A stretch of DNA of 24,000 nt from Candidatus Iainarchaeum sp. (lineage in GTDB: Archaea; Iainarchaeota; Iainarchaeia; Iainarchaeales; GCA-2688035), in assembly GCA_020053055.1 (NCBI GenBank), contig JAGVNX010000025.1, forward strand, positions 20,996 to 44,995, written 5' to 3'. Positions within the stretch are counted from its first letter, which is position 1. Every line of letters begins with the position of its first letter. The notes beneath the pieces were generated by a model. The model did not search any database and had not been told where the DNA came from. It worked only from the letters and a program-made list of their open reading frames with translations. A program made the translations under genes and the position numbers. Shown piece by piece: positions 3,240 through 17,655 of this stretch.

Positions 3240-4022
3240 TCAAAGCTTCAGAAACACAGGCGTTTTTGCCCGAATATAAAACAATACAAGCAAATCAACT
3301 AGCGGAAAGCCCAGGACAATTGCCAAAAAGACTTGTGCCAGAGTAAAATCTATTTTCAAAATCATGCTTCCCACAATTATAAAACTCTGGAACAAAGCCG
3401 GAACAATTGCAGAAACAGCAATAAACAGCAGGGAAAAAACAACAAGTTTTCCAGAAAAAGCCTTGCTTTCAGACCTTTGCTTTGCCAGCAATTCCAAAGC
3501 AATTCTCCTTACTGCTTCTGAACTCTTTATCCTGCCAGCCAAATCCTTGCTGCTTCCATGCTCGTAAACACTGCCCAGCTGCAAAACAGCGCGCTTCACA
3601 GCAACACTTTTGTTTCTCACGGCAAACCCAAGCAAAGCCTCCTGAATGCTCAGGCCTTTTTCCTTAACATCAAAAAAAATTTTTTTGAATTCCCCCGCAG
3701 TGGCAAGCTCATTTCTTGACGCATTAAAAACGCATTTTTCAAATGCAATATTCAAATCCAGGTCCATTGAAATTGAAAGCAACGCAAAAGGCAAATCCCT
3801 TTCAACGAACGAAACCCGCTTTTTTTCAGCCATAACAGGAATCAAAAGCATTGCAAAAAAAACCGCGCAAAAACAAGACAGCCCAAGAGCCAGTGCCAAA
3901 AAAATTTCCTCAAAAACAAGGGCAAAAACAAAACAAGCCAACAGCCCTGCAATTGCAGGATACGCAAAATTTTTTTCAGAAAAAAAAGACTTTTTTTTAA
4001 ACAATTTTTTTAACCAGGCCAT
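3240..4022 (-). CDS. T2SSF-domain membrane platform protein (TadB / half-FlaJ-like)
   Basis: It has the same TM-helical-TM architecture (VERDLPFALLSISMDL...AVKRAVLQLGSVYEHGSS). I prefer the ATG at 4022, 1 nt after the ATPase stop (TGAAATG), over the TTG at 4040 listed in the track. Confidence 0.7.
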   Translation of the reverse strand: MAWLKKLFKKKSFFSEKNFAYPAIAGLLACFVFALVFEEIFLALALGLSCFCAVFFAMLLIPVMAEKKRVSFVERDLPFALLSISMDLDLNIAFEKCVFNASRNELATAGEFKKIFFDVKEKGLSIQEALLGFAVRNKSVAVKRAVLQLGSVYEHGSSKDLAGRIKSSEAVRRIALELLAKQRSESKAFSGKLVVFSLLFIAVSAIVPALFQSFIIVGSMILKIDFTLAQVFLAIVLGFPLVDLLVLFYIRAKTPVFLKL

Positions 4023-4023
4023 T

Positions 4024-5475
4024 TCAAAAAACCCCCGCAAGAGGCTTGTTTATAGCTTCAAAAAAATCTTTTCCCAAAACTTTTTTTTGCGCAATCCAAT
4101 CCAAAAATTTTTTTCTTTTTTCTATTTCCAACAAAAATTTTTTCCTGTCAAAGCCCAAAAAATCCCTTGCTTTTGAAAAAACTTTTTCGCTTTCCCCTGT
4201 TTTTTCAAGGCAATCCCGTTGAAAATCAAGCCCAAACAACTGCCTTGTTTCTGCACATTCCCCTGAAAAGCCTATTTCCAAAGCCTCTACAATCCTGCGT
4301 TTTTCAACAAAGCCATGCCCGGAATGCTGTGCCCATCTTCTCTGCACAAGCAGCAAATCAATTGCAGCAAGGTCCAATTCTTTTATGCCAAACGATTTCA
4401 GCCTTGCAATCGCCTCTTTGCCGCATTGGGCATGAAATGTCCCATAACTCCCCCTGCCCTGCCCAGCAAGAAGAGTATCCATAAAAGCAATTGCTTCACA
4501 ATTATTCCTTATTTCGCCGACAACAACCCTGTCTGGCCGCATTCTCAAAGTGTCAATTATCAGGGAATGCATGTCAAAGCCCTGTTCTTTTACAACAGTC
4601 ATTTTTACGCAATGCTCGTGCGGCAAAACAATTTCCGGTGTTTCCTCGACTAAAATTATTCTCTCTTGTTTTGGAACAAAGCCAAGCAGGCAATTGAGAG
4701 TTGATGTTTTTCCGCTTCCGGTATTTCCTGCAATCAAAAAACTGCATTCTAATTCAAGGGCAAGCCAGATAAAAGCGCAGAATTCGCTTGAAAAAGTATT
4801 GTTTTCAACCAAATCAATTGCAGTAAACGGTTCTGCGCGGAATTTTCTTATTGTAAGGCTTGCTTCCTCGGAAATCGGGGGAATTATTGCAGTCAGCCTG
4901 CTTCCATCTGGCAAATTTGCGTTCAGTTTTGGGCATTCAAGAGTCAGCCGCCGCCCGATTTTTCTCGCCATTTTGTTTGCCAAGTCCCTTACAAAAATTT
5001 CGCTTCCAAAAAAAACATTTGTCCTGACCCAGCCGAATTCCCTGTGAAAAATAAAAACAGGCTTTTTCCTGCCAATGCCAATAACAGAAATTTCTTCTAT
5101 TGCAGGGTCATTCAAAAAAAAGTCCAATGCAGAAAAACCAAAAATTCTCGACTCCAAAATTTTTTCAAAATACTTTCTTTGCTCGGAATCAAGCAGAATG
5201 CTTTTTTCAACACAATAATTCTCAATAAAATTTTCCAAATCTTCAGGCTTCTTTTTCAAATTTTGGCCCTGAAAATCCCTTGTCATTTTTTTCAGGACAA
5301 GCGCTTCCTGCAAAGTAAGCTCAGGCAATTTTGCAAAATAACACAATTCTCCCGAGTCAAGCTCAATTATGCTGTGATTTTCAGATTCCAGCAAAATTTT
5401 CTTTGCTTTTTTTTCACGCAAAGAAAAACAATTCCAGCCAACAATCCTTTCAACAGGCCTTTCAGGTTTATCCAA
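4024..5475 (-). CDS. Type IV filament / secretion ATPase (FlaI-ArlI / TadA-CpaF / VirB11 superfamily)
   Basis: Walker A is AGNTGSGKTSTLN, the Asp box/Walker B is ERIILVEETPEI, and the His-box region is RMRPDRVVVGEIR. The start is a TTG directly after an in-frame TAG. No in-frame ATG occurs for about 60 codons. Confidence 0.85.
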   Translation of the reverse strand: MDKPERPVERIVGWNCFSLREKKAKKILLESENHSIIELDSGELCYFAKLPELTLQEALVLKKMTRDFQGQNLKKKPEDLENFIENYCVEKSILLDSEQRKYFEKILESRIFGFSALDFFLNDPAIEEISVIGIGRKKPVFIFHREFGWVRTNVFFGSEIFVRDLANKMARKIGRRLTLECPKLNANLPDGSRLTAIIPPISEEASLTIRKFRAEPFTAIDLVENNTFSSEFCAFIWLALELECSFLIAGNTGSGKTSTLNCLLGFVPKQERIILVEETPEIVLPHEHCVKMTVVKEQGFDMHSLIIDTLRMRPDRVVVGEIRNNCEAIAFMDTLLAGQGRGSYGTFHAQCGKEAIARLKSFGIKELDLAAIDLLLVQRRWAQHSGHGFVEKRRIVEALEIGFSGECAETRQLFGLDFQRDCLEKTGESEKVFSKARDFLGFDRKKFLLEIEKRKKFLDWIAQKKVLGKDFFEAINKPLAGVF

Positions 5476-5930: not shown

Positions 5931-8900
5931 TTATTTTTTATAGCCTAACTTGTTTTTTTTGCTTCTAGTAACAGCAATTCCAATTGTCACTATTGCAATC
6001 ACAATGAGGATTATGAGGCCAGCTGTTGCCAAGTTAATTCCGCCTGTTGCAGGCGGCTGGCTAACCTGTGGCGTTACTGCTGGCGCTGGGCAATCTGCCG
6101 GGCAATTTACAGTTGTTTCCCCATTCTCGCATGTGCCATTGCCGCATTTTGGCCCCGCTGGAGGAATCACTGGTATTTTTACTTCAGTATAACCTGTGAC
6201 AATCGGGCTTCTTATTGTGCCTGCAATTGCATCAGTAATATTTTTTGCAACTTCATATGTAACGCTTGCTATTTCCCCTGTGTTTACTGTTGGAACAGTA
6301 AATTCTATTATGGGGTCTGATTTCAATACTTTCATTGAATAACTGCTTGTTATTTCAGAAGCATTTGCCGCAATTGCTTTTGGTATTTCCACAACAAGTT
6401 TTATGTCTTTCCAGTTTTTTGTGGAATTATTTGTCAAAGCAATTGTGATTGTAGTATTGTATGAAACAACTCCGGCAACGCTTGTATTTTTTTCAACTTT
6501 GACACTCTGGCTTACTGGAACTGCCTGTGCAATTTCAAGCATTTTTGGAGTAATGCTTGCATATCCTGCTTCTGTCAATATTAAGGCTATTTCATCTGAT
6601 GTCAATGGTGGGCTTTCAATTGCCTGTTCAATAATTGTCTCTGTTGTTGGAGTTTCTGGTGTTCCAGTGCCGCCGCCAGGCCCTGTTGGGGTTATAGGCG
6701 GTGGTGTTACAGGCGGATTTACAGAGCCGCCGCTTGCTGAACTGAATGTTATTGTTTTTGATTGGGCTGAACTGTTTAAATCCATGAAGTCCATTGCCTT
6801 GAAGTAATAAGTTAGTGTTGCAGGCAATGAAGCGCTGCTTGTAATACAGACATTGTAAGTGTTGACCATGCCATTGTCTAAATAATTTGTTCCGTTGCTG
6901 CTGTACCAGAATTTCTTTATGTTTGATGTGTCATTTGCATCCATGGTTACTCCTACGCAGAGCCCAGTTGAACTGCTTGCCCCTAACACTGTTAAAATTG
7001 GGTTGTTTGTGTCATTTATTCCTGCCGGATTTCTTGTTGAATTCTGGTCGCTTGTTGCAGTTGACATTCTGCTGTTTACATCAAATGCCCAGCTTCCAGC
7101 GCCCCTGTTATTGTCTGTTCTTACTCCTAAGAGCATGTCAATAAAGTACCTGCCTTCAAACAGGTTTTTTGCATTCAAATAAAAGCGACAATTTGTATCC
7201 CTGTTTGTAGTGTGGTTTTCATCTATTGTTCCCGCAACAGGCGCATTGCTGTGATAAGTGCATTTTACTGTGGTTTGCTGTGAATTTCCAATTGACCTGT
7301 TAGTATCTGAAAGCATTAAATTCAGGTCTTTGAATAGCAAATTGTTTTTGTCGCCTCTTGTCTGTGAATAGTATATTGAAAGGTTTAAGTCTCCCAGTGA
7401 CAGGTTTGTGTCCTGTATTCTTACATTAAAGTCTATTGCAAGGTTTTGGTCTGCAGTCAGGCCTGCCCTGTTGAAGTCAAAGAAAGTTGCGCCATAGCTG
7501 TTCATGAAGTTTGTATCCCAAATGTAAATGCTTGGCTTGTTGATTATTGTGTTTGCATCGCTTGTTGCACAAATAGTGTTTCCAACAGCAGCGCTTCTAG
7601 GCGCAGACATGTTGATGTCAATATAAAACTGACCCATTATTGTTGTGCGCAAATCCGGGAATGCCTGTACATCACCGCTAACTTTTCTTCTTGTTGTCCC
7701 AACAATGTATGTTCCTGAACCCGTTGTTCCAGTGAAATGGCTGAATCCTGCTTCACCACTGTCTTTATATCTTGCCAGGTCAAGACTTATTGAACAGGTT
7801 TGTGTTGTTGAAATGTTTGCATCGTCATCATTTAATGCATAGCCGTTTGTTGCCGTTGCTGCGAAAGATACTGGTGTTGTTGTACAACTAATTCCATTGT
7901 AATCCAAAATATTGTAGTCTGTGTACAGCAGATAGTGCTGCCCGCATTGCTTTTTTGACAAGTATATACTTACTGCAAAGTTTGCATCGCCTGGTTTCCA
8001 TGCTGAACTGTTTTGGTCCTGGTAATTTGTGTCTTTGTATGTGAATGTTACTGTCAAATTTCCATCTCTTGTGTAATATGTTCTTCCAGCATTAGAATCC
8101 CCGGTAACTGTTACAAATAAGCTTCCTGCGCTATATTCTGAAAAACCGCTTACTCTGAATGAAAGGTTTCCATCCCCTGCAATTGGGTCATAAACCCAAC
8201 TTGGCGTGGTGTCTGTAGCAGTGTAAATATTAGTATAAGAAAATGTGCCTGCATCAAGATTTTTGCATACTGTTGCGGGGCATAGTTTGCCGTTTCTTGC
8301 TAATGCTGGAATTGCCCCTGTGGACTTTATGTTATACAAAGTAATATTTGCATCTATTGGATTGCCAAAAGGATCTGTGCCAAATTCCGGCATTGTATCA
8401 GAATCAATTTTTGCCCTTCCTGAACTTCCATCCATGCCATTGTCATAGTCTCTTCTTGGGCCTGTCGCCATGTTCATGTCAGAATTCATTTTTATTTGTG
8501 CAATTAATACTGTTCCATTGGAGGTTTTCAATTGCACTTGTAATCCTGAAACTTGGCCTTGGTTTCTTATCATTCCGCCTCTCATGGCCTGGTCTACTGG
8601 CACTCTTTGGAATGTCTGCCCTGTGCCTGCTGCTTTGCAAGTATTATATCCTCCATTTGCGTCTTGGCAAATTCCAATTGTTACATTTTCATCGACGCTC
8701 ATTGTAAAGCCAGGCGTGACAATTATTTTTGCAGTTGCATTCATGTCTTTTACATACTGTGGGCTTAATCCACTGTTTATGTCAACCCTTATGTTATTGT
8801 CTGGAATTCCGTTTGGACCAGCAAGACTAATTGTAAATGGCACTTTGAAGTTCACATCAAACTGGCCGTTTGCATCAGGCCTTAGCATATAACCATAAAA

Positions 8901-12610: not shown

Positions 12611-12665
12611 ATTTTTTCATTTATAAATAAGATTTTGGAATTTAAATACCTGCCCTGCATTATTT

Positions 12666-13133
12666 TTATTTTAAATAATATGCCAATAGTTTTTCATTGA
12701 CCAGCCTGCCGTTCTGCATAAAATTTTTTTTCCTTTCGCCTTCAATTTCGAATCCGAATCCTGAATAAAAATCCAGTATTTCCGTGTTAGTTTCAACAGC
12801 AGCAGCCTCAATTTTTTGCTTTGCAGGATGCCGTTTTTCCAGTTCTTTCAAAAGAATTTCCAATACTGTTTTTTGCTGCAATTGCGGCTTTGCAATCAGA
12901 GTGCCAACTTTCAATACATGGGCTTTTTTTCCTGAATAATCAGTATAATATGCAAACCCGACAATTTTCTTGTTTTGTTCGACGACAAGAGCTTTTTTCC
13001 AGTTGTCCTGCCATTCCATCTGCCTTTCCCTTACAGAAGCATTTCTCCCGATTTCAACGAAATCATTCACTTTCGGGTTTAACAATAGTTCAAACACTTC
13101 CTTGAAATCCCCAAATTTTGCGTTTCTAATCAT
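12666..13133 (-). CDS. GNAT-family N-acetyltransferase
   Basis: 155 aa. The C-terminal ILDFYSGFGFEIEG matches the GNAT beta-bulge/motif B region. The size and secondary-structure pattern are typical. Substrate is unknown. Confidence 0.7.
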   Translation of the reverse strand: MIRNAKFGDFKEVFELLLNPKVNDFVEIGRNASVRERQMEWQDNWKKALVVEQNKKIVGFAYYTDYSGKKAHVLKVGTLIAKPQLQQKTVLEILLKELEKRHPAKQKIEAAAVETNTEILDFYSGFGFEIEGERKKNFMQNGRLVNEKLLAYYLK

Positions 13134-13197
13134 GGCAACACCTCAAGTATGCGGATATTTAAAAAATTGTTTTTCAACTTTTTGAAAAAAGAGTTAT

Positions 13198-13563
13198 TTA
13201 TGCTGGCAATTGCAGGTCAACAGGCTTTTCTTCCTGGCTTGTTTGTTCGCAGTTTTGGCCTGCTTCTTTAAGCTTTTCTTTCATTTCTTTGTCAACCTGC
13301 TTTAATAATTCTTCAAAATTTTTTTTATTTTTTCCAATGCTCTGGTTCATTGCTTTCTTGTATTGTTCCCAGAATTCCAAAGGAGTGATTTTTTTCATGA
13401 AAAGCGCCCTCTTCAAGCCCCAAATTTCCTTTCTGAATCCTTCGTCAACAAGCATTTGTTCCCGTGCAATCTCCTTTATTTTTGCAGTATAGGAAAAAAA
13501 TTTTTGCGTTTCTTCCGCATGGCTTTCGGAAAAAATATTCCTGAATATTCCGAAGGCAAGCAT
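13198..13563 (-). CDS. Hypothetical protein (121 aa), helical, Lys/Glu-rich
   Basis: ATG start. It is divergent from the KaiC-like gene across a 212-nt promoter region. I recognise no family motif. Confidence 0.5.
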   Translation of the reverse strand: MLAFGIFRNIFSESHAEETQKFFSYTAKIKEIAREQMLVDEGFRKEIWGLKRALFMKKITPLEFWEQYKKAMNQSIGKNKKNFEELLKQVDKEMKEKLKEAGQNCEQTSQEEKPVDLQLPA

Positions 13564-13601
13564 TTTGAACCACTTTCAGCATTAGAATAATGATTTTAAA
13601 A

Positions 13602-13630
13602 TTTTAACATTTAACACCATAATGTTAAAA
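13602..13630. promoter_or_regulatory. Perfect 10-bp inverted repeat (TTTTAACATT-N9-AATGTTAAAA) in the divergent promoter region
   Basis: Read directly: arms are 13602-13611 and 13621-13630. It lies between the divergent genes starting at 13563 (-) and 13776 (+). A TATA-like TTTATATA sits at 13735-13742, about 34 nt upstream of the KaiC-like ATG. Confidence 0.3.
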
Positions 13631-13775
13631 AACCTTTCCCAATTTTTTTCCAACATAAAAAAAAAGATTCTGTGAATTCAATAATTTTTTCCAAAATTTA
13701 TTATTAAAGATTTGCTGAAAATCAAAAAACAATATTTATATAGTAGTTGAACATTAATGACTATCTGGTTTTGTT

Positions 13776-14507
13776 ATGGTTAATGCAATCGAACGAATCC
13801 AATCCGGGATAAAAGGCTTTGACAGTTTTATTGAAGGCGGTTTTCCCGAGGGCAGCATTACTCTTGTCGTAGGAACCCCGGGAACGGGAAAAAGCATTTT
13901 TGTTGCCGAAGTTCTTTACAGCAATGCCTTGCAGGGCAAGCGTTGTTTATACCTGAATCTTGAGCAAAGCGAAGGCAAGCTTGAAAAGCAAATCTCGCAG
14001 TTTGGCTGGGACTTGGCAAAAGCAGGGAAAAACCTGCGAATTGTTTCAGTAGATTTTCCAAATCCGGGAATGGTTGAATTTGTTTTGGACGAAGTGCAGC
14101 GCCTGAATTATGATTTGATTGCAATTGATTCCCTTGATTCAATTTCAAGCAGCCCCTTGGAAACAGACGAAATTGGAAAAATGGGAATGGACAGGATTGC
14201 AGAAACAGTGATTCCAACTTTGTTCGATGCCCAGACAGTCGGCAGGCTGAAATTAAAAAAAATTTTTGCCGCAATTTCAAAATCAAAAGCCACTGCATTC
14301 TTAACAACGGAAAAAATTGAAGGCGCACAAGGAATAACAAGAGACACTATTTCAGAATTCCTCTGCGACAACATACTGGTAATGTACTATCTTGGCATTG
14401 GAAGCTCCCAATACAGAAGCGCACAAGTCCTGAAAATGCGCCTAAGCAACCACGAAAAAGACTTCATCCCATTCGAAATAACAAAAAAAGGAATCGAATT
14501 AAGATAA
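13776..14507 (+). CDS. Single-domain KaiC/RadA-like RecA-superfamily ATPase (COG0467 type)
   Basis: SGIKGFDSFIEGGFPEGSITLVVGTPGTGKSIF parallels the KaiC TGIEGFD...GG.P.G...L..G..GTGKT region and includes Walker A. Walker B is YDLIAIDSLDS. At 243 aa it is one KaiC domain. Confidence 0.85.
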   Translation: MVNAIERIQSGIKGFDSFIEGGFPEGSITLVVGTPGTGKSIFVAEVLYSNALQGKRCLYLNLEQSEGKLEKQISQFGWDLAKAGKNLRIVSVDFPNPGMVEFVLDEVQRLNYDLIAIDSLDSISSSPLETDEIGKMGMDRIAETVIPTLFDAQTVGRLKLKKIFAAISKSKATAFLTTEKIEGAQGITRDTISEFLCDNILVMYYLGIGSSQYRSAQVLKMRLSNHEKDFIPFEITKKGIELR

Positions 14508-14525
14508 ATTTTTTTAGGAATTTTT

Positions 14526-15182
14526 TTGCCCAGAACCCAAAGGATAAGAAGAGGCGTAGTCACATTTCCAAAGCATTCTGATTTTACAAAAGCCGCTAGT
14601 TCTATTGGCGATAAAGGTTCGTTGTTTCGCCTGCGGAAATTTTTCAAAGACAGCAGCAAATTAACCCAAAAAAGAGAGGCACTTCTTGAAAAACTTTTAA
14701 AAAGAAAACCACAAAAATTTTATGATTTCTATTGCAGAACAAGGACTCGCTACCAGGCACTGTTTGCAGAATTATTGGCTGGGCTGGAAAGATGCAATTT
14801 CAAAGTGGACATGGAATTATTTGAAAAGTCTGCTTCTAAAGCTCCAAGTTATTCCCATGATTTTTACCGCATCAAAGGAATCAGCTTAATTATTCCAAAA
14901 AAATTTGGATTCCGCAGGCAGCTTTCCCCGGCTGAACAGCAAGAACTTCAGGAATATGCTTCCGCATCGCTTAATCAAGCGAAAAGTCTTTTTAAAAAAA
15001 TGCTTCCAGAAATAACAATAACGGAACTGCATTTGGCGCATATGTGGAATCTTCCATTTGGCTACCCAAATACTGAAGAAATCCGAGCTAAAATGAAAAC
15101 ACGCCCAGTTCAAAGAGACATTTGCAATGGAGTTTCAGCAATTGCAAAATTTTTAACTGACATGGAAAAACCAGCCAGATAA
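14526..15182 (+). CDS. Hypothetical protein (up to 218 aa), no recognised family
   Basis: The ORF begins at a TTG 18 nt after the KaiC-like stop. The first in-frame ATG is far downstream, so the true start is uncertain. The composition looks coding. Confidence 0.5.
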   Translation: MPRTQRIRRGVVTFPKHSDFTKAASSIGDKGSLFRLRKFFKDSSKLTQKREALLEKLLKRKPQKFYDFYCRTRTRYQALFAELLAGLERCNFKVDMELFEKSASKAPSYSHDFYRIKGISLIIPKKFGFRRQLSPAEQQELQEYASASLNQAKSLFKKMLPEITITELHLAHMWNLPFGYPNTEEIRAKMKTRPVQRDICNGVSAIAKFLTDMEKPAR

Positions 15183-15198
15183 AAAATTCAGTTTTTTT

Positions 15199-15651
15199 TC
15201 ATCCAAGATAATCCAGTGCGTCAATTATTTCTTGATTTGTTATTTTTATTGCTACTCCAAGGCTTTTGTGCAATTCAATTTTTTTCTCTGAAACCTGCAA
15301 AGTAGGGTAAACAAAAAGGTAATGTGTTCCCTTGTATTTATAAAAATCAATCATGTCTGTTGACCTTGCGCCCAGCATTGCCCGAAGCCTTCCTGCAAAC
15401 CTTTCCCTTGCAACAGCTTTGGATTCTTTTTTATCAGCAAGGCCATTTTCCCATCTGGGCTCTGTTTTTTTCAAAGAACCAAATTGGATTTCTTCAATAG
15501 CTTGCCCTGCAATGAGTTCCCCGATGTTTCTAATGTGCCATCTTGCAGGATTCGGCATTAAAGGTTTTCTCAGGTCCCCAAAGCCACGAGCGTGTTCTCT
15601 GTGTTCCTGCAAAAACTTTGGAAGAAATTTTATTGCCCTGCGCAAAGCCAT
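15199..15651 (-). CDS. Hypothetical protein (150 aa), no recognised family
   Basis: I prefer the ATG at 15651 (MALRRAIKF...) over the TTG at 15660. It is convergent with the 14526-15182 ORF, with a 16-nt gap. Confidence 0.55.
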   Translation of the reverse strand: MALRRAIKFLPKFLQEHREHARGFGDLRKPLMPNPARWHIRNIGELIAGQAIEEIQFGSLKKTEPRWENGLADKKESKAVARERFAGRLRAMLGARSTDMIDFYKYKGTHYLFVYPTLQVSEKKIELHKSLGVAIKITNQEIIDALDYLG

Positions 15652-15757
15652 TTTAATCAAAAAAATTAGTGTTCAAGTTGTTAAAAATTGTTTGCTTTCA
15701 ATTTCTAAAGGCCTTTCATTTTATTCTTAATTTGTGGTTTTTCTCTTTTGGGCTCCT

Positions 15758-15792
15758 AAAAACTTTTCTCTTTTTTCTAGAAAGAGAAAAGG
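15758..15792 (-). terminator. Stem-loop plus T5 run, terminator-like on the minus strand
   Basis: The minus strand reads CTTTTCTCTTT-CTAGAAA-AAAGAGAAAAG-TTTTT. That is an 11-bp stem (15781-15791 with 15763-15773), a 7-nt loop and a T-run (complement of 15758-15762). It lies downstream of the hydrolase gene and directly abuts the tRNA-end repeat copy at 15793-15807. Confidence 0.5.
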
Positions 15793-15807
15793 ATTTAGCC
15801 CCGGAGA
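15793..15807. repeat. Direct repeat copy 1: ATTTAGCCCCGGAGA (duplicate of the tRNA-Gln 3' end plus 3-nt trailer)
   Basis: It is a perfect 15/15 match, in the same orientation, to 16614-16628. The flanking bases differ on both sides. Confidence 0.85.
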
Positions 15808-15816
15808 CAATATGAC

Positions 15817-15832
15817 GCAAAAGCATTAGCCC
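15817..15832. repeat. Inverted repeat arm 1: GCAAAAGCATTAGCCC
   Basis: It is the perfect reverse complement of 16597-16612 (GGGCTAATGCTTTTGC). It is preceded by ATGAC, so it mimics the hydrolase 5' end (ATGGCAAAAGCATTAGCCC) in inverted orientation. Confidence 0.85.
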
Positions 15833-15850
15833 CAAAGTCTTCCCTTTGGA

Positions 15851-16615
15851 CTAAAGTGTTTGCTTAAACCACCTAATAATCTCTTCGGTAAATTGCTTTT
15901 TCCAGTTTTCATTAGTTAAGTTATGAGTGGCCCCCTTTATTTCAAATTTCTCTTTTTTTCTAACTCTTTTTGCTTTCAAATAATAGCCGTCTGAAATTTC
16001 AGCAGGGATGATATGGTCATTTTCCGAAGTTATAACTAATAGACTGCCAGAGAAATTTGAAATTGCTTTAACGGCTGGCGTATTACTCACATCACGCATA
16101 TTTTTGAATATTTTTTCTTCATTCACCATCAATTGGGAAAGGGTCATGTTCATCAGCTCATCTGAATACGTTGCCGGAACTCTCATCGCCAAGCTTTTCA
16201 CATTTCTTTGTGCGCAAACCAATGATGCTACAGCCGCCCCTACACTAACGCCACAAATACCAATTCTCTTTTCATCGATATTAGGTTGAGAAATAAGAAA
16301 GTCGTACGCGGTCAATCCATCATTCACCAAGTCGGAAACGGTTAATTTGTTGAAATTTCCTTCGCTTTTTCCATGGCCGCGCAAACTCAACGCCAAACCA
16401 ACAATTCCCTCTTTAGCTATCGTTTCGGCAATTGGAACATATTTTTCTTTGCTGCTTGTCATCCCGTGGAAAAAAATTACAGCAGGAAGTTTTTCTTTTG
16501 TAATAGAAGGTAAAATCAGCGATCCGTCAATTTTTTGGCCTTCACTTGAGAATGTAACGTCGATCATAAATTTTTTCCTTGATTTTCTTAATCGTTGGGC
16601 TAATGCTTTTGCCAT
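15851..16615 (-). CDS. Alpha/beta-fold hydrolase (dienelactone hydrolase / S9-like serine hydrolase)
   Basis: It has the oxyanion region VIFFHGMTSS, the nucleophile elbow G-V-S-V-G (ICGVSVGAAVA) and a C-terminal catalytic His context KGATHNL. The ATG at 16615-16613 lies 1 nt after the tRNA discriminator base. Confidence 0.8.
   Translation of the reverse strand: MAKALAQRLRKSRKKFMIDVTFSSEGQKIDGSLILPSITKEKLPAVIFFHGMTSSKEKYVPIAETIAKEGIVGLALSLRGHGKSEGNFNKLTVSDLVNDGLTAYDFLISQPNIDEKRIGICGVSVGAAVASLVCAQRNVKSLAMRVPATYSDELMNMTLSQLMVNEEKIFKNMRDVSNTPAVKAISNFSGSLLVITSENDHIIPAEISDGYYLKAKRVRKKEKFEIKGATHNLTNENWKKQFTEEIIRWFKQTL
16597..16612. repeat. Inverted repeat arm 2: GGGCTAATGCTTTTGC
   Basis: It is the reverse complement of 15817-15832. 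It encodes codons 2-6 (AKALA) of the hydrolase. Confidence 0.85.
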
Positions 16616-16628
16616 TTAGCCCCGGAGA
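16614..16628. repeat. Direct repeat copy 2: ATTTAGCCCCGGAGA (within the tRNA-Gln 3' end)
   Basis: It is identical to 15793-15807. It covers the last 12 nt of the tRNA (T-stem 3' strand, acceptor 3' strand, discriminator) plus 3 nt of trailer. Confidence 0.85.
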
Positions 16629-16712
16629 GATTCGAACTCCCGTTTTCGCCTAGCTCCCTGTATTTTGAATACTCTCAGAGGGCGAAGTGCTTGGCCGCTA
16701 CACTACGGGGCT
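16617..16712 (-). tRNA. tRNA-Gln (anticodon CUG) with a 23-nt intron at the canonical 37/38 position
   Basis: Hand-folded structure:
- Acceptor AGCCCCG/CGGGGCT (A1-U72, as in archaeal tRNA-Gln).
- D arm GTGT/GCAC.
- Anticodon stem TCGCC/GGCGA.
- Loop C-T-CTG-A (anticodon at 16676-16678).
- T arm GGGAG-TTCGAAT-CTCTC, discriminator A.
The intron is 16652-16674 (GAGTATTCAAAATACAGGGAGCT). It can form a 4-bp helix (CUCU/GGAG) flanked by two 3-nt bulges that hold both splice sites, i.e. BHB-like. No CCA is encoded. Confidence 0.85.
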
Positions 16713-16723
16713 ATTGTAAGAAA

Positions 16724-17655
16724 TTAACTAAGTAACATATTTAACTTTTTCCTCTTAACGGGGTGGTCGAAACCTATTAGCATACTGAATTTTTTTAGGC
16801 TTTCTTTTTGCTGGATTCTTATTGTATATAATGGCAAATATTTGTTTGATTTAACCCATTTATTTTTATTGGTAAAAATCTCTTGTTGTTGTAATAACAA
16901 AAAAACCTGTTCAACTATGCCTTTGCTTGTGCTTGAGAAACTGGCCCATCTTTTAGTGACTGTTCCGTCAGAATCAAATAAGCCTTTAATGCAGGCATTT
17001 ATAATTTCTGCTTTGCCGCAATTTGCAATTCTGTTGGGGATTATTATTTTATCTGCCTTTTTGCCAGCCGCAATTTTGAAAAAAGATCTAAAAAACCACT
17101 GAACAACTTTTGAATAAAAATAGCATTCATAATAATGTTTCTTTGAAAAATAGAACTTTGGTTCTGTTTCGAAGTTGTCCTTGATTATTCTTTGATATTT
17201 TTGCATATGCTCGAAATTATCGAAGTAGACTGCGATTGCCCAATTCCGGTTTTATTAACTGTATCGCCTGCCAAATGGCCATCGCCAAGGATTAAGCCGA
17301 TAGCATAAGCCAAATCAGGAGTCAGCATTTTGGGAAATTTTAAATTCTGCCTATTTCGGTTGGTTCTTTGCACTGTAAACCTAATTGTTTTGCCCCAAAT
17401 TTTTTTCAAAATTTTGTGTCGGAGGTTCTGAGGAACTAATGCTAAAAGTGTGTTGAATTTTTTAAGATGAATTGGGATTCTGCCAGTGCGGGTTTCTTTT
17501 ATCGTAGAATAGGATACTTTACTGAGCCTGGCTGCTTTTGTGCTTCCGCCGAGATAATCTGTAAGTTCGCAAATTTCTTCTTTCAGTCCTGACAGATAAA
17601 TAGCTTCATTGAGCCAATCTTTTTGTATATCAAAAATATTCAAATCCGTCTTCAT
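16724..17655 (-). pseudogene. Free-standing HTH + double-motif LAGLIDADG homing endonuclease, split by a frameshift
   Basis: Two overlapping ORFs, 17185-17655 and 16724-17206. The first motif is AYAIGLILGDGHL and the second is IKGLFDSDGTV. The N-terminus has an HTH-like segment (STKAARLSKVSYSTIKETR). Adding one A to the run at 17250-17253 (T4 on the plus strand) gives a continuous ...GDTVNKNRNWAIAVYFDNFEHMQKY... reading frame. Confidence 0.7.
16737..16750 (-). promoter_or_regulatory. BRE/TATA-like promoter for tRNA-Gln, embedded in the 3' end of the endonuclease ORF
   Basis: The minus strand reads AAAAAG-TTAAATAT, and the TATA element ends 24 nt upstream of tRNA position 1 (16712). This is typical archaeal promoter spacing. 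Confidence 0.45.

Follow-up and report, generated by a model that had tools for sequence, protein, structure and literature searches.

We analysed a 24,000-nt stretch of DNA from Candidatus Iainarchaeum sp. (assembly GCA_020053055.1, contig JAGVNX010000025.1, positions 20,996 to 44,995 of the forward strand; hereafter the window), in which a gene for an alpha/beta-hydrolase lies between a tRNA-Gln(CUG) gene and the terminator of that tRNA, bracketed by a pair of direct repeats and a pair of inverted repeats (the arms). An earlier note on this DNA had read the arrangement as a discrete insertion of about 0.8 kb with one cargo gene and no recombinase between the repeats, a description that the comparisons reported here support, and as the product of target duplication by an element with terminal inverted repeats, which they contradict. 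The features of the locus, in the order in which they follow along the minus strand, are these:

16617-16712, minus strand: tRNA-Gln(CUG) gene (Rfam RF00005, 50.3 bits; anticodon read by hand).
16712-16675 (exon 1), about 16674-16652 (intron) and 16651-16617 (exon 2), minus strand: parts of the tRNA gene, the integration target and putative attB side of attL.
16614-16628, minus strand: proximal 15-nt repeat copy, putative attL core, made up of the last 12 nt of the tRNA (TCTCCGGGGCTA) and AAT.
16568-16616, minus strand: 49-nt spacer, likely the 5' leader of the hydrolase gene, holding the proximal arm and the motif CAAGGAA, with T-runs of at most 3.
16597-16612, minus strand: proximal arm (minus-strand sequence GCAAAAGCATTAGCCC) at the 5' flank of the cassette, identical in the related loci L100 and L101 (see below).
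15851-16567, minus strand: alpha/beta-hydrolase cargo gene, 238 aa from Met17.
15832-15849, minus strand: small hairpin CCAAAG-GGAAGA-CTTTGG directly after the hydrolase stop codon, identified by folding, the first part of the 3' module.
15817-15832, minus strand: distal arm (minus-strand sequence GGGCTAATGCTTTTGC), belonging to the 3' module.
15808-15816, minus strand: 9-nt linker from the distal arm to the distal core (GTCATATTG on the minus strand), conserved in L100 and reading GTCATATCG in L101.
15793-15807, minus strand: distal 15-nt repeat copy, putative attR core, the displaced original tRNA end and trailer.
15758-15792, minus strand: original trailer and terminator of the tRNA (CC, a polypyrimidine/polypurine hairpin and T5), abutting the distal repeat.

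Both pairs of repeats are present and exceed every shuffled control. The 15-mer ATTTAGCCCCGGAGA has only the two listed copies in the window, even with up to 2 mismatches allowed (0 of 100 shuffles matched), and the proximal copy consists, as the earlier note had it, of the last 12 nt of tRNA-Gln plus 3 nt of trailer. The 16-nt arms, GCAAAAGCATTAGCCC at 15817-15832 and the matching complement at 16597-16612, are complementary at all positions, and a search for further arm copies found no other close copy in the window; in 200 shuffles of 160-nt gene flanks, the longest inverted match was 11 nt and the longest direct match 10 nt. On the outer side of each arm stands an ATG, with which the inverted repeat continues in imperfect form (CAT/ATG, 2-nt bulge), and the stem-loop and T5 terminator directly abut the distal repeat, two further details that had been noted before and that we also find. 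The arms are offset from the direct repeats by 9 nt on the distal and 1 nt on the proximal side and lie 764 nt apart around the cargo, whereas the stretch between the two direct repeat copies is 806 bp long (15808-16613) and holds a single gene. TTAGCCC of the proximal arm is complementary to the tRNA 3' end. There is no anomaly of GC content across the hydrolase, and at 14 other loci with hydrolase homologues we found no inverted or direct repeats around the gene above those of shuffled sequences, so that the repeats are not a feature of the hydrolase family. We considered whether the arms might form a bulge-helix-bulge splicing-endonuclease site that circularises the mRNA, and rejected this by inspection: the helix is a perfect 16 bp, with flanks that lack 3-nt bulges 4 bp apart. 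Within the hydrolase coding region lies another perfect 15-nt inverted repeat (15939-15953 and 16049-16063, ATTTCAAATTTCTCT and AGAGAAATTTGAAAT, arms 95 nt apart); one of its arms has 2 differences in L100, and it is therefore probably a chance match in AT-rich coding sequence.

The tRNA gene contains an intron of 23-25 nt in the anticodon loop (read by hand), because of which ARAGORN did not report a tRNA-Gln in the window. A search of 15650-16760 at permissive thresholds for weak tRNA-like sequences or other RNA families returned only the tRNA and noise. In related genomes the orthologous tRNA-Gln adjoins the gene for UPP synthase (UPPS) at L017, L101, L103, L105, L009 and L018. We located such loci by scanning metagenome contigs with the last 25 nt of the tRNA, and further loci were anchored on the neighbouring UPPS gene. 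Exact look-ups with the hydrolase of the window, in its 254-aa and in its 238-aa form, matched no contig. The loci that bear on the history of the site are listed here, with the identity of UPPS to that of the window:

L100 (GCA_020056555.1), same species, about 97% nucleotide identity: filled, with the structure of the window.
L101 (GCA_028713935.1), UPPS 88%: tRNA, RidA gene, junction module, hydrolase.
L103, UPPS 81%: empty; followed by KaiC-like, orf13198-like and GNAT genes shared with the window.
L105, UPPS 77%: the final 19-20 nt of the tRNA present in two additional copies.
L017, UPPS 76%: empty; tRNA, AATCC and hairpin, then a P-type ATPase gene (67% aa).
L106-L112 (24 contigs of the species of L017), UPPS 76%: empty, identical to L017.

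The insertion is polymorphic among these relatives. Deletion of the unit from the window recreates a tRNA followed by its terminator, as had been predicted from the window alone, and the result is exactly the tRNA, AATCC and hairpin found at L017, L103 and L106-L112, where the flanks join seamlessly in empty attB sites; the expectation that relatives might all carry the filled junction, which would have spoken against an insertion, thus fails. At L105 the same AATCC-hairpin stands 3' of the last repeat copy. The gene order at L017 is geranylgeranyl reductase (GGR), DUF192, UPPS, tRNA-Gln(CUG), P-type ATPase and a large protein. In the window, the intact tRNA and a displaced partial copy of it form the direct repeats, and the distal copy is followed by the ancestral trailer and terminator. 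L100 is an independently assembled contig of a metagenome-assembled genome (MAG) that shows scattered point differences from the window and carries the same structure, and an assembly artefact such as a chimeric join is therefore excluded as an origin of the repeats, its probability being negligible: the junction module recurs in a third assembly (L101), the flanks match the empty sites base for base, and nothing speaks for an artefact beyond the general risk attached to metagenome contigs.

The arrangement at L101 relates the arms to the repeat rather than to the cargo. There the tRNA is followed, after 17 nt, by a gene for a RidA protein of 130 aa (TIGR00004, 111.6 bits against a cut-off of 106.25), and the sequence after RidA reads CTTTGGGGCTAACGCTTTTGC-GTCATATCG-TCTGCGGGGCTA-TTTG-GCAAAAGCATTAGCCC-AACGATTAAGAAGACCAAGGAAAAAATTT-ATG, the last parts being the leader and start of the hydrolase. 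The two arms are thus adjacent, around one 12-nt copy of the tRNA end, between two cargo genes; since they flank one core, arms and tRNA-end core appear to form one site that is split by integration. The RidA unit ends in the distal arm with 1 substitution, preceded 3' of its stop codon by a homologue of the small hairpin sequence, and over the approximately 55 nt after the RidA stop codon and the approximately 55 nt after the hydrolase stop codon of the window 48 of 55 positions match, although the two genes are unrelated. The L101 junction folds as a hairpin with 15 of 16 bp paired, and the reconstructed junction of the window has z = -4.8 as DNA and z = -5.1 as RNA. In viral contigs the module pattern had 0 matches, and the arm pattern had 2 chance matches inside unrelated coding regions.

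The tRNA-Gln site is used repeatedly. At L105 (717-1035) the tRNA is followed by 2 more copies of its last 19-20 nt at a spacing of about 100 nt, with hairpin-rich non-coding DNA between them, and at L018 (UPPS 55%; 4020-4158, minus strand) a second partial copy lies 35 nt after the tRNA within a strong palindrome (z = -6.1). Looked at more closely, L105 holds three copies of TTCGAATCTCTCCGGGGCTA, each preceded by a TTTCCCAAGGC-hairpin, and the extra partial copy at L018 pairs with its own inverted copy around a GAAA loop; neither locus has cargo.

Comparison of the core copies distinguishes recombination between two sites from duplication of a target. The copies on the side of the distal arm (arm') in L100, after the hydrolase, and in L101, after RidA, read TCTGCGGGGCTA (ending TCTG), the whole distal core copy of L100 being TCTGCGGGGCTAAAT, whereas the core copies in tRNA-Gln(CUG) always read TCTCCGGGGCTA (TCTC); TCTG is the 3' end of tRNA-Gln(UUG). 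As duplication of a target cannot import a foreign base but a core borne by the element can, the base in the element-side core argues for an attP × attB event, and we interpret the copies as the attL/attR pattern of conservative site-specific recombination. The length of the repeat also varies among events (12, 15 and 19-20 nt). A non-autonomous inverted-repeat element inserted with a target duplication of about 15 bp, for which a casposon-derived miniature element would be a candidate, is by contrast a distinctly improbable source of the unit. Casposons make 14-15-bp duplications at tRNA 3' ends, the window unit does have a perfect 15-nt direct and a perfect 16-nt inverted repeat near its ends, and tandem insertion into one target would also leave one repeat copy between units, as in L101. 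The arms, however, stand 9 nt and 1 nt away from the repeats and are therefore not terminal, which excludes a transposon of the type with terminal inverted repeats and a target-site duplication. Moreover, the arms of L101 flank the repeat and not the cargo, the duplication has no fixed length, in both L100 and L101 the outer copy departs from the target at one and the same base and agrees with another tRNA-Gln, and the arm has no further copy in the window. No Cas1, PolB or DDE gene is associated with the unit; a single transposase was seen, that of an unrelated insertion sequence (IS), which has inverted repeats of its own and a duplication of 6 bp. The earlier account of target duplication with terminal inverted repeats falls on these points, namely the position of the arms in the window and in L101 and the element-side G that is absent from the target tRNA.

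We further compared the use of synonymous codons between the window and L101 together with L099, a contig that carries the other side of the L101 locus. At conserved residues, the same codon is used at 186 of 209 positions in the hydrolase (0.89), compared with 732 of 1158 (0.63) in six other genes pooled (Fisher p = 4.6 × 10−15); the individual fractions are 0.70 for GGR, 0.51 for PST, 0.65 for Hexapep, 0.70 for DUF192, 0.64 for UPPS and 0.66 for orf15199, which adjoins the hydrolase on the L099 contig itself. The higher fraction in the hydrolase than in its neighbours indicates that the cassette was exchanged between the species after they had diverged. In L101/L099 the hydrolase is interrupted after codon 5 by an IS with an rve_3 transposase (L101 7416-7643, L099 1-26), the ends of which are imperfect 26-nt inverted repeats (TGTTACGTGACA..., 19 of 26 positions matching) flanked by a 6-bp GTTACA target duplication; the presence of these ends and of the duplication on both contigs identifies L101 and L099 as two sides of one locus. 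L099 has lost its attR side, namely arm', the core and half of the hairpin.

These observations also bear on the possibility that the unit is the decayed, immobile stump of a larger integrated element (a virus, a plasmid or an island with an integrase), from which internal deletion left the hydrolase and in which the inverted repeat is incidental. Elements of 9-23 kb in archaeal tRNA genes, with a complete and a partial tRNA copy, are well documented (PYG1, PMC9897764), and the short non-coding remains between the repeat copies of L105 and L018, the deleted attR side of L099 with its hydrolase broken by an IS, and the lack of a recombinase nearby would all suit such decay. Nevertheless, the module starts right after the stop codons of two unrelated genes, with the core between them, which is hard to obtain by random deletion; the similarity at synonymous positions (0.89 vs. 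0.63) speaks for movement as a small unit after the species split; and the stretch between the repeats contains no fragments of an integrase, the hydrolase being the only gene there. We therefore regard a stump as rather unlikely.

A similar arrangement is found at L001 and L002, where the same hydrolase with a homologous leader lies directly behind an intron-bearing tRNA-Gln(UUG), and where the proximal arm is recognisable (in L001, as TCAAAAGTAGTTAGCCC). The locus could accordingly have arisen with no mobile element, by template switching or break repair with a tRNA-Gln(UUG)-hydrolase donor, the break perhaps being made by a LAGLIDADG endonuclease, whose gene is found 12 nt upstream of the tRNA, though only in the window and L100; the inverted-plus-direct partial tRNA copy of L018 is, likewise, typical of fold-back events. 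Yet the site also bears duplications in L101, L105 and L018, which have no LAGLIDADG gene, and a one-off repair explains neither the module behind RidA nor the recent exchange between species, all of which makes a purely local rearrangement very improbable.

Taken together, we consider it likely that the 806-bp unit is a recombinase-less single-gene cassette that was inserted into the 3' end of tRNA-Gln(CUG) by conservative recombination of the attP × attB type. In its free or junction form the cassette site would consist of arm' (16 nt), 9 nt, a core that repeats the final 12 nt of a tRNA-Gln, 1-4 nt and the arm (16 nt), which would together make a long imperfect palindrome. Under a Campbell-type scheme, with a circular intermediate and a recombinase acting in trans, a crossover inside the core (within CGGGGCTA) would place the arm beside the intact tRNA (attL), and the same crossover would place arm' and a second core beside the displaced trailer and terminator (attR); the hydrolase would be bracketed by inverted as well as direct repeats because a crossover in the core splits the site. 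The regenerated tRNA end could then be used again, giving tandem cassettes such as RidA followed by the hydrolase in L101. Both cargo genes are co-oriented with the tRNA and lie between it and the terminator, with spacers of 17 nt (RidA) and 49 nt (hydrolase) that have T-runs of at most 3. Cassettes would, under the most economical model, be transcribed from the tRNA promoter and freed by tRNA 3' processing, as is probably the case here, and the hydrolase would then be translated from Met17.

Several observations weigh against integration by site-specific recombination, or limit it. No circular form or excision junction was observed, and an unsplit arrangement is seen solely at the internal junction of L101, where both neighbours are integrated units. 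No clear arm is present in the 5' flank of the RidA unit (TGAAAGAAACACGTTGC), so that a requirement for the palindrome is not shown, and the gap of 26 nt between the arms greatly exceeds the 6-8-bp overlap of known core sites of tyrosine recombinases. The distal core of the window itself reads TCTC rather than TCTG, and the core is followed by the trailer AAT in the window but by TTT in L101, a difference that one simple crossover leaves unexplained. The module is carried by only two cargo genes in three lineages, hydrolase homologues at 57-59% identity have no adjoining tRNA, and homologous recombination via the conserved flanks, tRNA and terminator, could have brought about the exchange between species. 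Finally, neither the 24-kb window nor any of the neighbourhoods fetched, including the flanks of L099, L100 and L105, contains an integrase or other recombinase. We considered orf15199 as a candidate recombinase, as the window, L100, L099 and L105 have it downstream of the site whereas the empty loci L017 and L103 lack it, and dropped it: it is an ORFan with a poor AlphaFold model (pLDDT 52.7), has no match in Pfam, NCBIfam or PHROG, and has only 3-4 homologues among billions of proteins.

The cargo is an alpha/beta-hydrolase by sequence, with a GxSxG nucleophile elbow, the accompanying Asp and His, and a match to Pfam Hydrolase_4 above the cut-off (1e-16, 61 bits against 27), besides matches to Peptidase_S9 and DLH. 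Ser124 (in GVSVG), Asp200 and His231, in the numbering of the 254-aa open reading frame (ORF), are invariant in 13 sequences. This 254-aa ORF does begin at 16615, 1 nt past the discriminator base of the tRNA, as the earlier note had observed; that ATG, however, is not the start codon. Translation starts at Met17 (16567): members of the family are mostly 237-240 aa long, with about 93% query coverage; most sequences in an alignment of 12 homologues start at the position of Met17 or within a few residues of it; in L001, the closest relative (75% identity), the upstream frame meets a stop codon 11 codons before the ATG; the NCBI annotation of the window contig gives the hydrolase as 238 aa; and codons 1-16 of the 254-aa ORF show no conservation as coding sequence. 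The window, L101 and L001 share a conserved CAAGGAA 8-14 nt before Met17, and the leader of the window is identical to that of L101 at 48 of 52 nt (92%) and was aligned by eye with that of L001. Because translation starts at Met17, a leader of 49 nt with a conserved AAGGA remains, and the proposal that RNase Z cleavage would yield an essentially leaderless hydrolase mRNA falls. The nearest relatives of the hydrolase outside the lineage (L019-L027, 45-56% identity) belong mostly to bacteria of the candidate phyla radiation (CPR; Patescibacteria), namely Doudnabacteria, Staskawiczbacteria and Saccharibacteria, with one Nanoarchaeia MAG, and that the family occurs in CPR bacteria as well points to cross-domain gene flow among ultra-small microbes. 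At 3 of these 9 loci (L019, L024 and L027) a convergent tRNA gene lies about 20-250 nt downstream of the hydrolase.

Compared with known systems, the unit is best classed as a variant of tRNA-targeted site-specific integration, integron-like in layout, that belongs to none of the families considered. Archaeal elements in tRNA genes are 9-23 kb long and encode an integrase of their own, and their repeats measure about 40-50 bp (PMC9897764); PYG1 of Pyrococcus yayanosii, for example, lies at tRNA-Gln(TTG) with 44-bp repeats (PMC9897764). With PYG1, the Thermococcus elements TKV/TPV and SSV-type elements our unit shares the tRNA 3' end as target, complete and partial tRNA copies as direct repeats, and a tRNA left functional; it differs from them in its size of 0.8 kb, its one gene, the lack of an integrase, its repeats of 12-15 nt, and the tandem units with a shared end module of about 55 nt. 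Integron cassettes and integrase-less clusters (CALINs) have been reported in Archaea (PMC9668308). Like these, the unit combines a single ORF with a hairpin-capable inverted-repeat site, one fixed site of growth, the lack of a recombinase within the cassette and co-orientation with an upstream promoter, and co-oriented single-ORF units that each end in a recombination site are found as RidA and hydrolase in L101 and as the hydrolase alone in the window, that is, as two types of unit. Unlike integrons, insertion is at a tRNA 3' end and not at attI, the site holds a copy of the tRNA end, no IntI was seen, and the module is near-identical between two cassettes, whereas attC sites vary. No IntI or attI lies beside the array, the upstream region consisting of the tRNA gene, UPPS and, in the window, the LAGLIDADG gene, in which no tyrosine recombinase was found. 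An identity with attC was rejected, since the order RYYYAAC...GTTRRRY does not occur: GCCCAAC stands on the 3' side of the palindrome and has no GTTRRRY partner in order (by eye).

CIMEs (cis-mobilisable elements) are described in Firmicutes as deletion derivatives of integrative and conjugative elements, are kilobases long and carry several genes. The unit resembles them, and the tandem accretion of islands at bacterial att sites, in its attL and attR flanks, the lack of recombination genes, tandem units that share one att core and presumed mobilisation in trans, and differs in being a single-gene unit of 0.8 kb for which no parent element is known here. With casposons it has in common a duplication of about 15 bp at a tRNA 3' end, inverted repeats near the ends and an archaeal host; Cas1 and PolB are missing, the arms are not terminal, the copies differ in the manner of attP and attB, and the repeat length varies. 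As in tRNA-mRNA operons such as thrU-tyrU-glyT-thrT-tufB of E. coli, a protein gene follows a tRNA without an intervening terminator, an order in which processing of the tRNA would set the 5' end of the mRNA, but here the arrangement was made by insertion of a foreign cassette, and co-transcription is a prediction.

More broadly, and only as a tentative and rather doubtful proposal, the Iainarchaeota (DPANN) might use the tRNA-Gln 3' end as an integron-like platform for gene capture, which would jointly involve promoter-less single-gene cassettes, a palindromic site of about 55 nt, a recombinase of the host or a helper, stacking, exchange between species and tRNA-mRNA co-transcripts. DPANN archaea, whose genomes are tiny, depend on other cells, and their ways of gaining genes are poorly understood. 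If the proposal holds, it would provide a minimal route of gene gain, in which recombinase-less units of one gene dock at a tRNA and are probably driven by its promoter, and direct evidence of such a unit crossing between species after their divergence. It would also give a short signature (arm', 9 nt and tRNA-end core; GGGCTAAYGCTTTTGCGTCATATYGTCTSCGGGGCTA) with which metagenomes could be searched to list cargo genes, and a concrete site from which to trace the responsible recombinase, and it would bridge classical tRNA-targeted integration and cassette arrays of the integron style.

The host of the window is a DPANN archaeon: its genes include PAC2, GGR, archaeal pilus-type ATPases, UPPS, a KaiC-like ATPase and a P-type ATPase, and the nearest UPP synthases to its UPPS are labelled Candidatus Iainarchaeum or Diapherotrites. 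The region from the tRNA terminator to the P-type ATPase gene (12611-15757) is variable, the number of genes differing among relatives (0 in L017, 1 in L105, an orf15199 homologue, 3 in L103, namely KaiC-like, orf13198-like and GNAT, and 5 in the window); no repeat boundaries were found in it, and two of its genes, orf15199 and orf14526, are without known family. The free-standing LAGLIDADG homing-endonuclease gene (16724-17655, minus strand) lies between UPPS and tRNA-Gln. It consists of two overlapping ORFs (17655-17185 and 17206-16724) and is thus frameshifted; it is present in L100 and absent from L101, L103, L105 and L017.

The tRNA-Gln genes themselves vary among these genomes. The intron of 23-25 nt found in the window and L100 is lacking in the close relatives L017, L101, L103 and L105, whereas tRNA-Gln(UUG) of L001 (91-214) has an intron of 51 nt. 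Elsewhere tRNA-Gln(UUG) seems to be split or permuted (L010, about 6519-6552 and 6730-6767, plus strand, and likewise L014; L016, about 1370-1407), and such genes escape Rfam. In L010 and L014 both halves are on one strand, and the 3' half, which has an AATCC-hairpin terminator of its own, precedes the 5' half by about 180 nt; the trailer of the 5' half (TTCTTGGGAGAA) is complementary to the leader of the 3' half (TTCTCCTGAGAA) at about 10 of 12 positions. The stand-alone 3' half of tRNA-Gln(UUG) in L016 shares this leader end, GAGAAAAGAA, and the 51-nt intron of L001 has GAGAAAAGAA at its 3' end too. In L001, finally, the 14-mer TTCCGAGACCTCCC occurs both at 1-14, about 90 nt upstream of tRNA-Gln(UUG), and at about 145-158, inside its intron.

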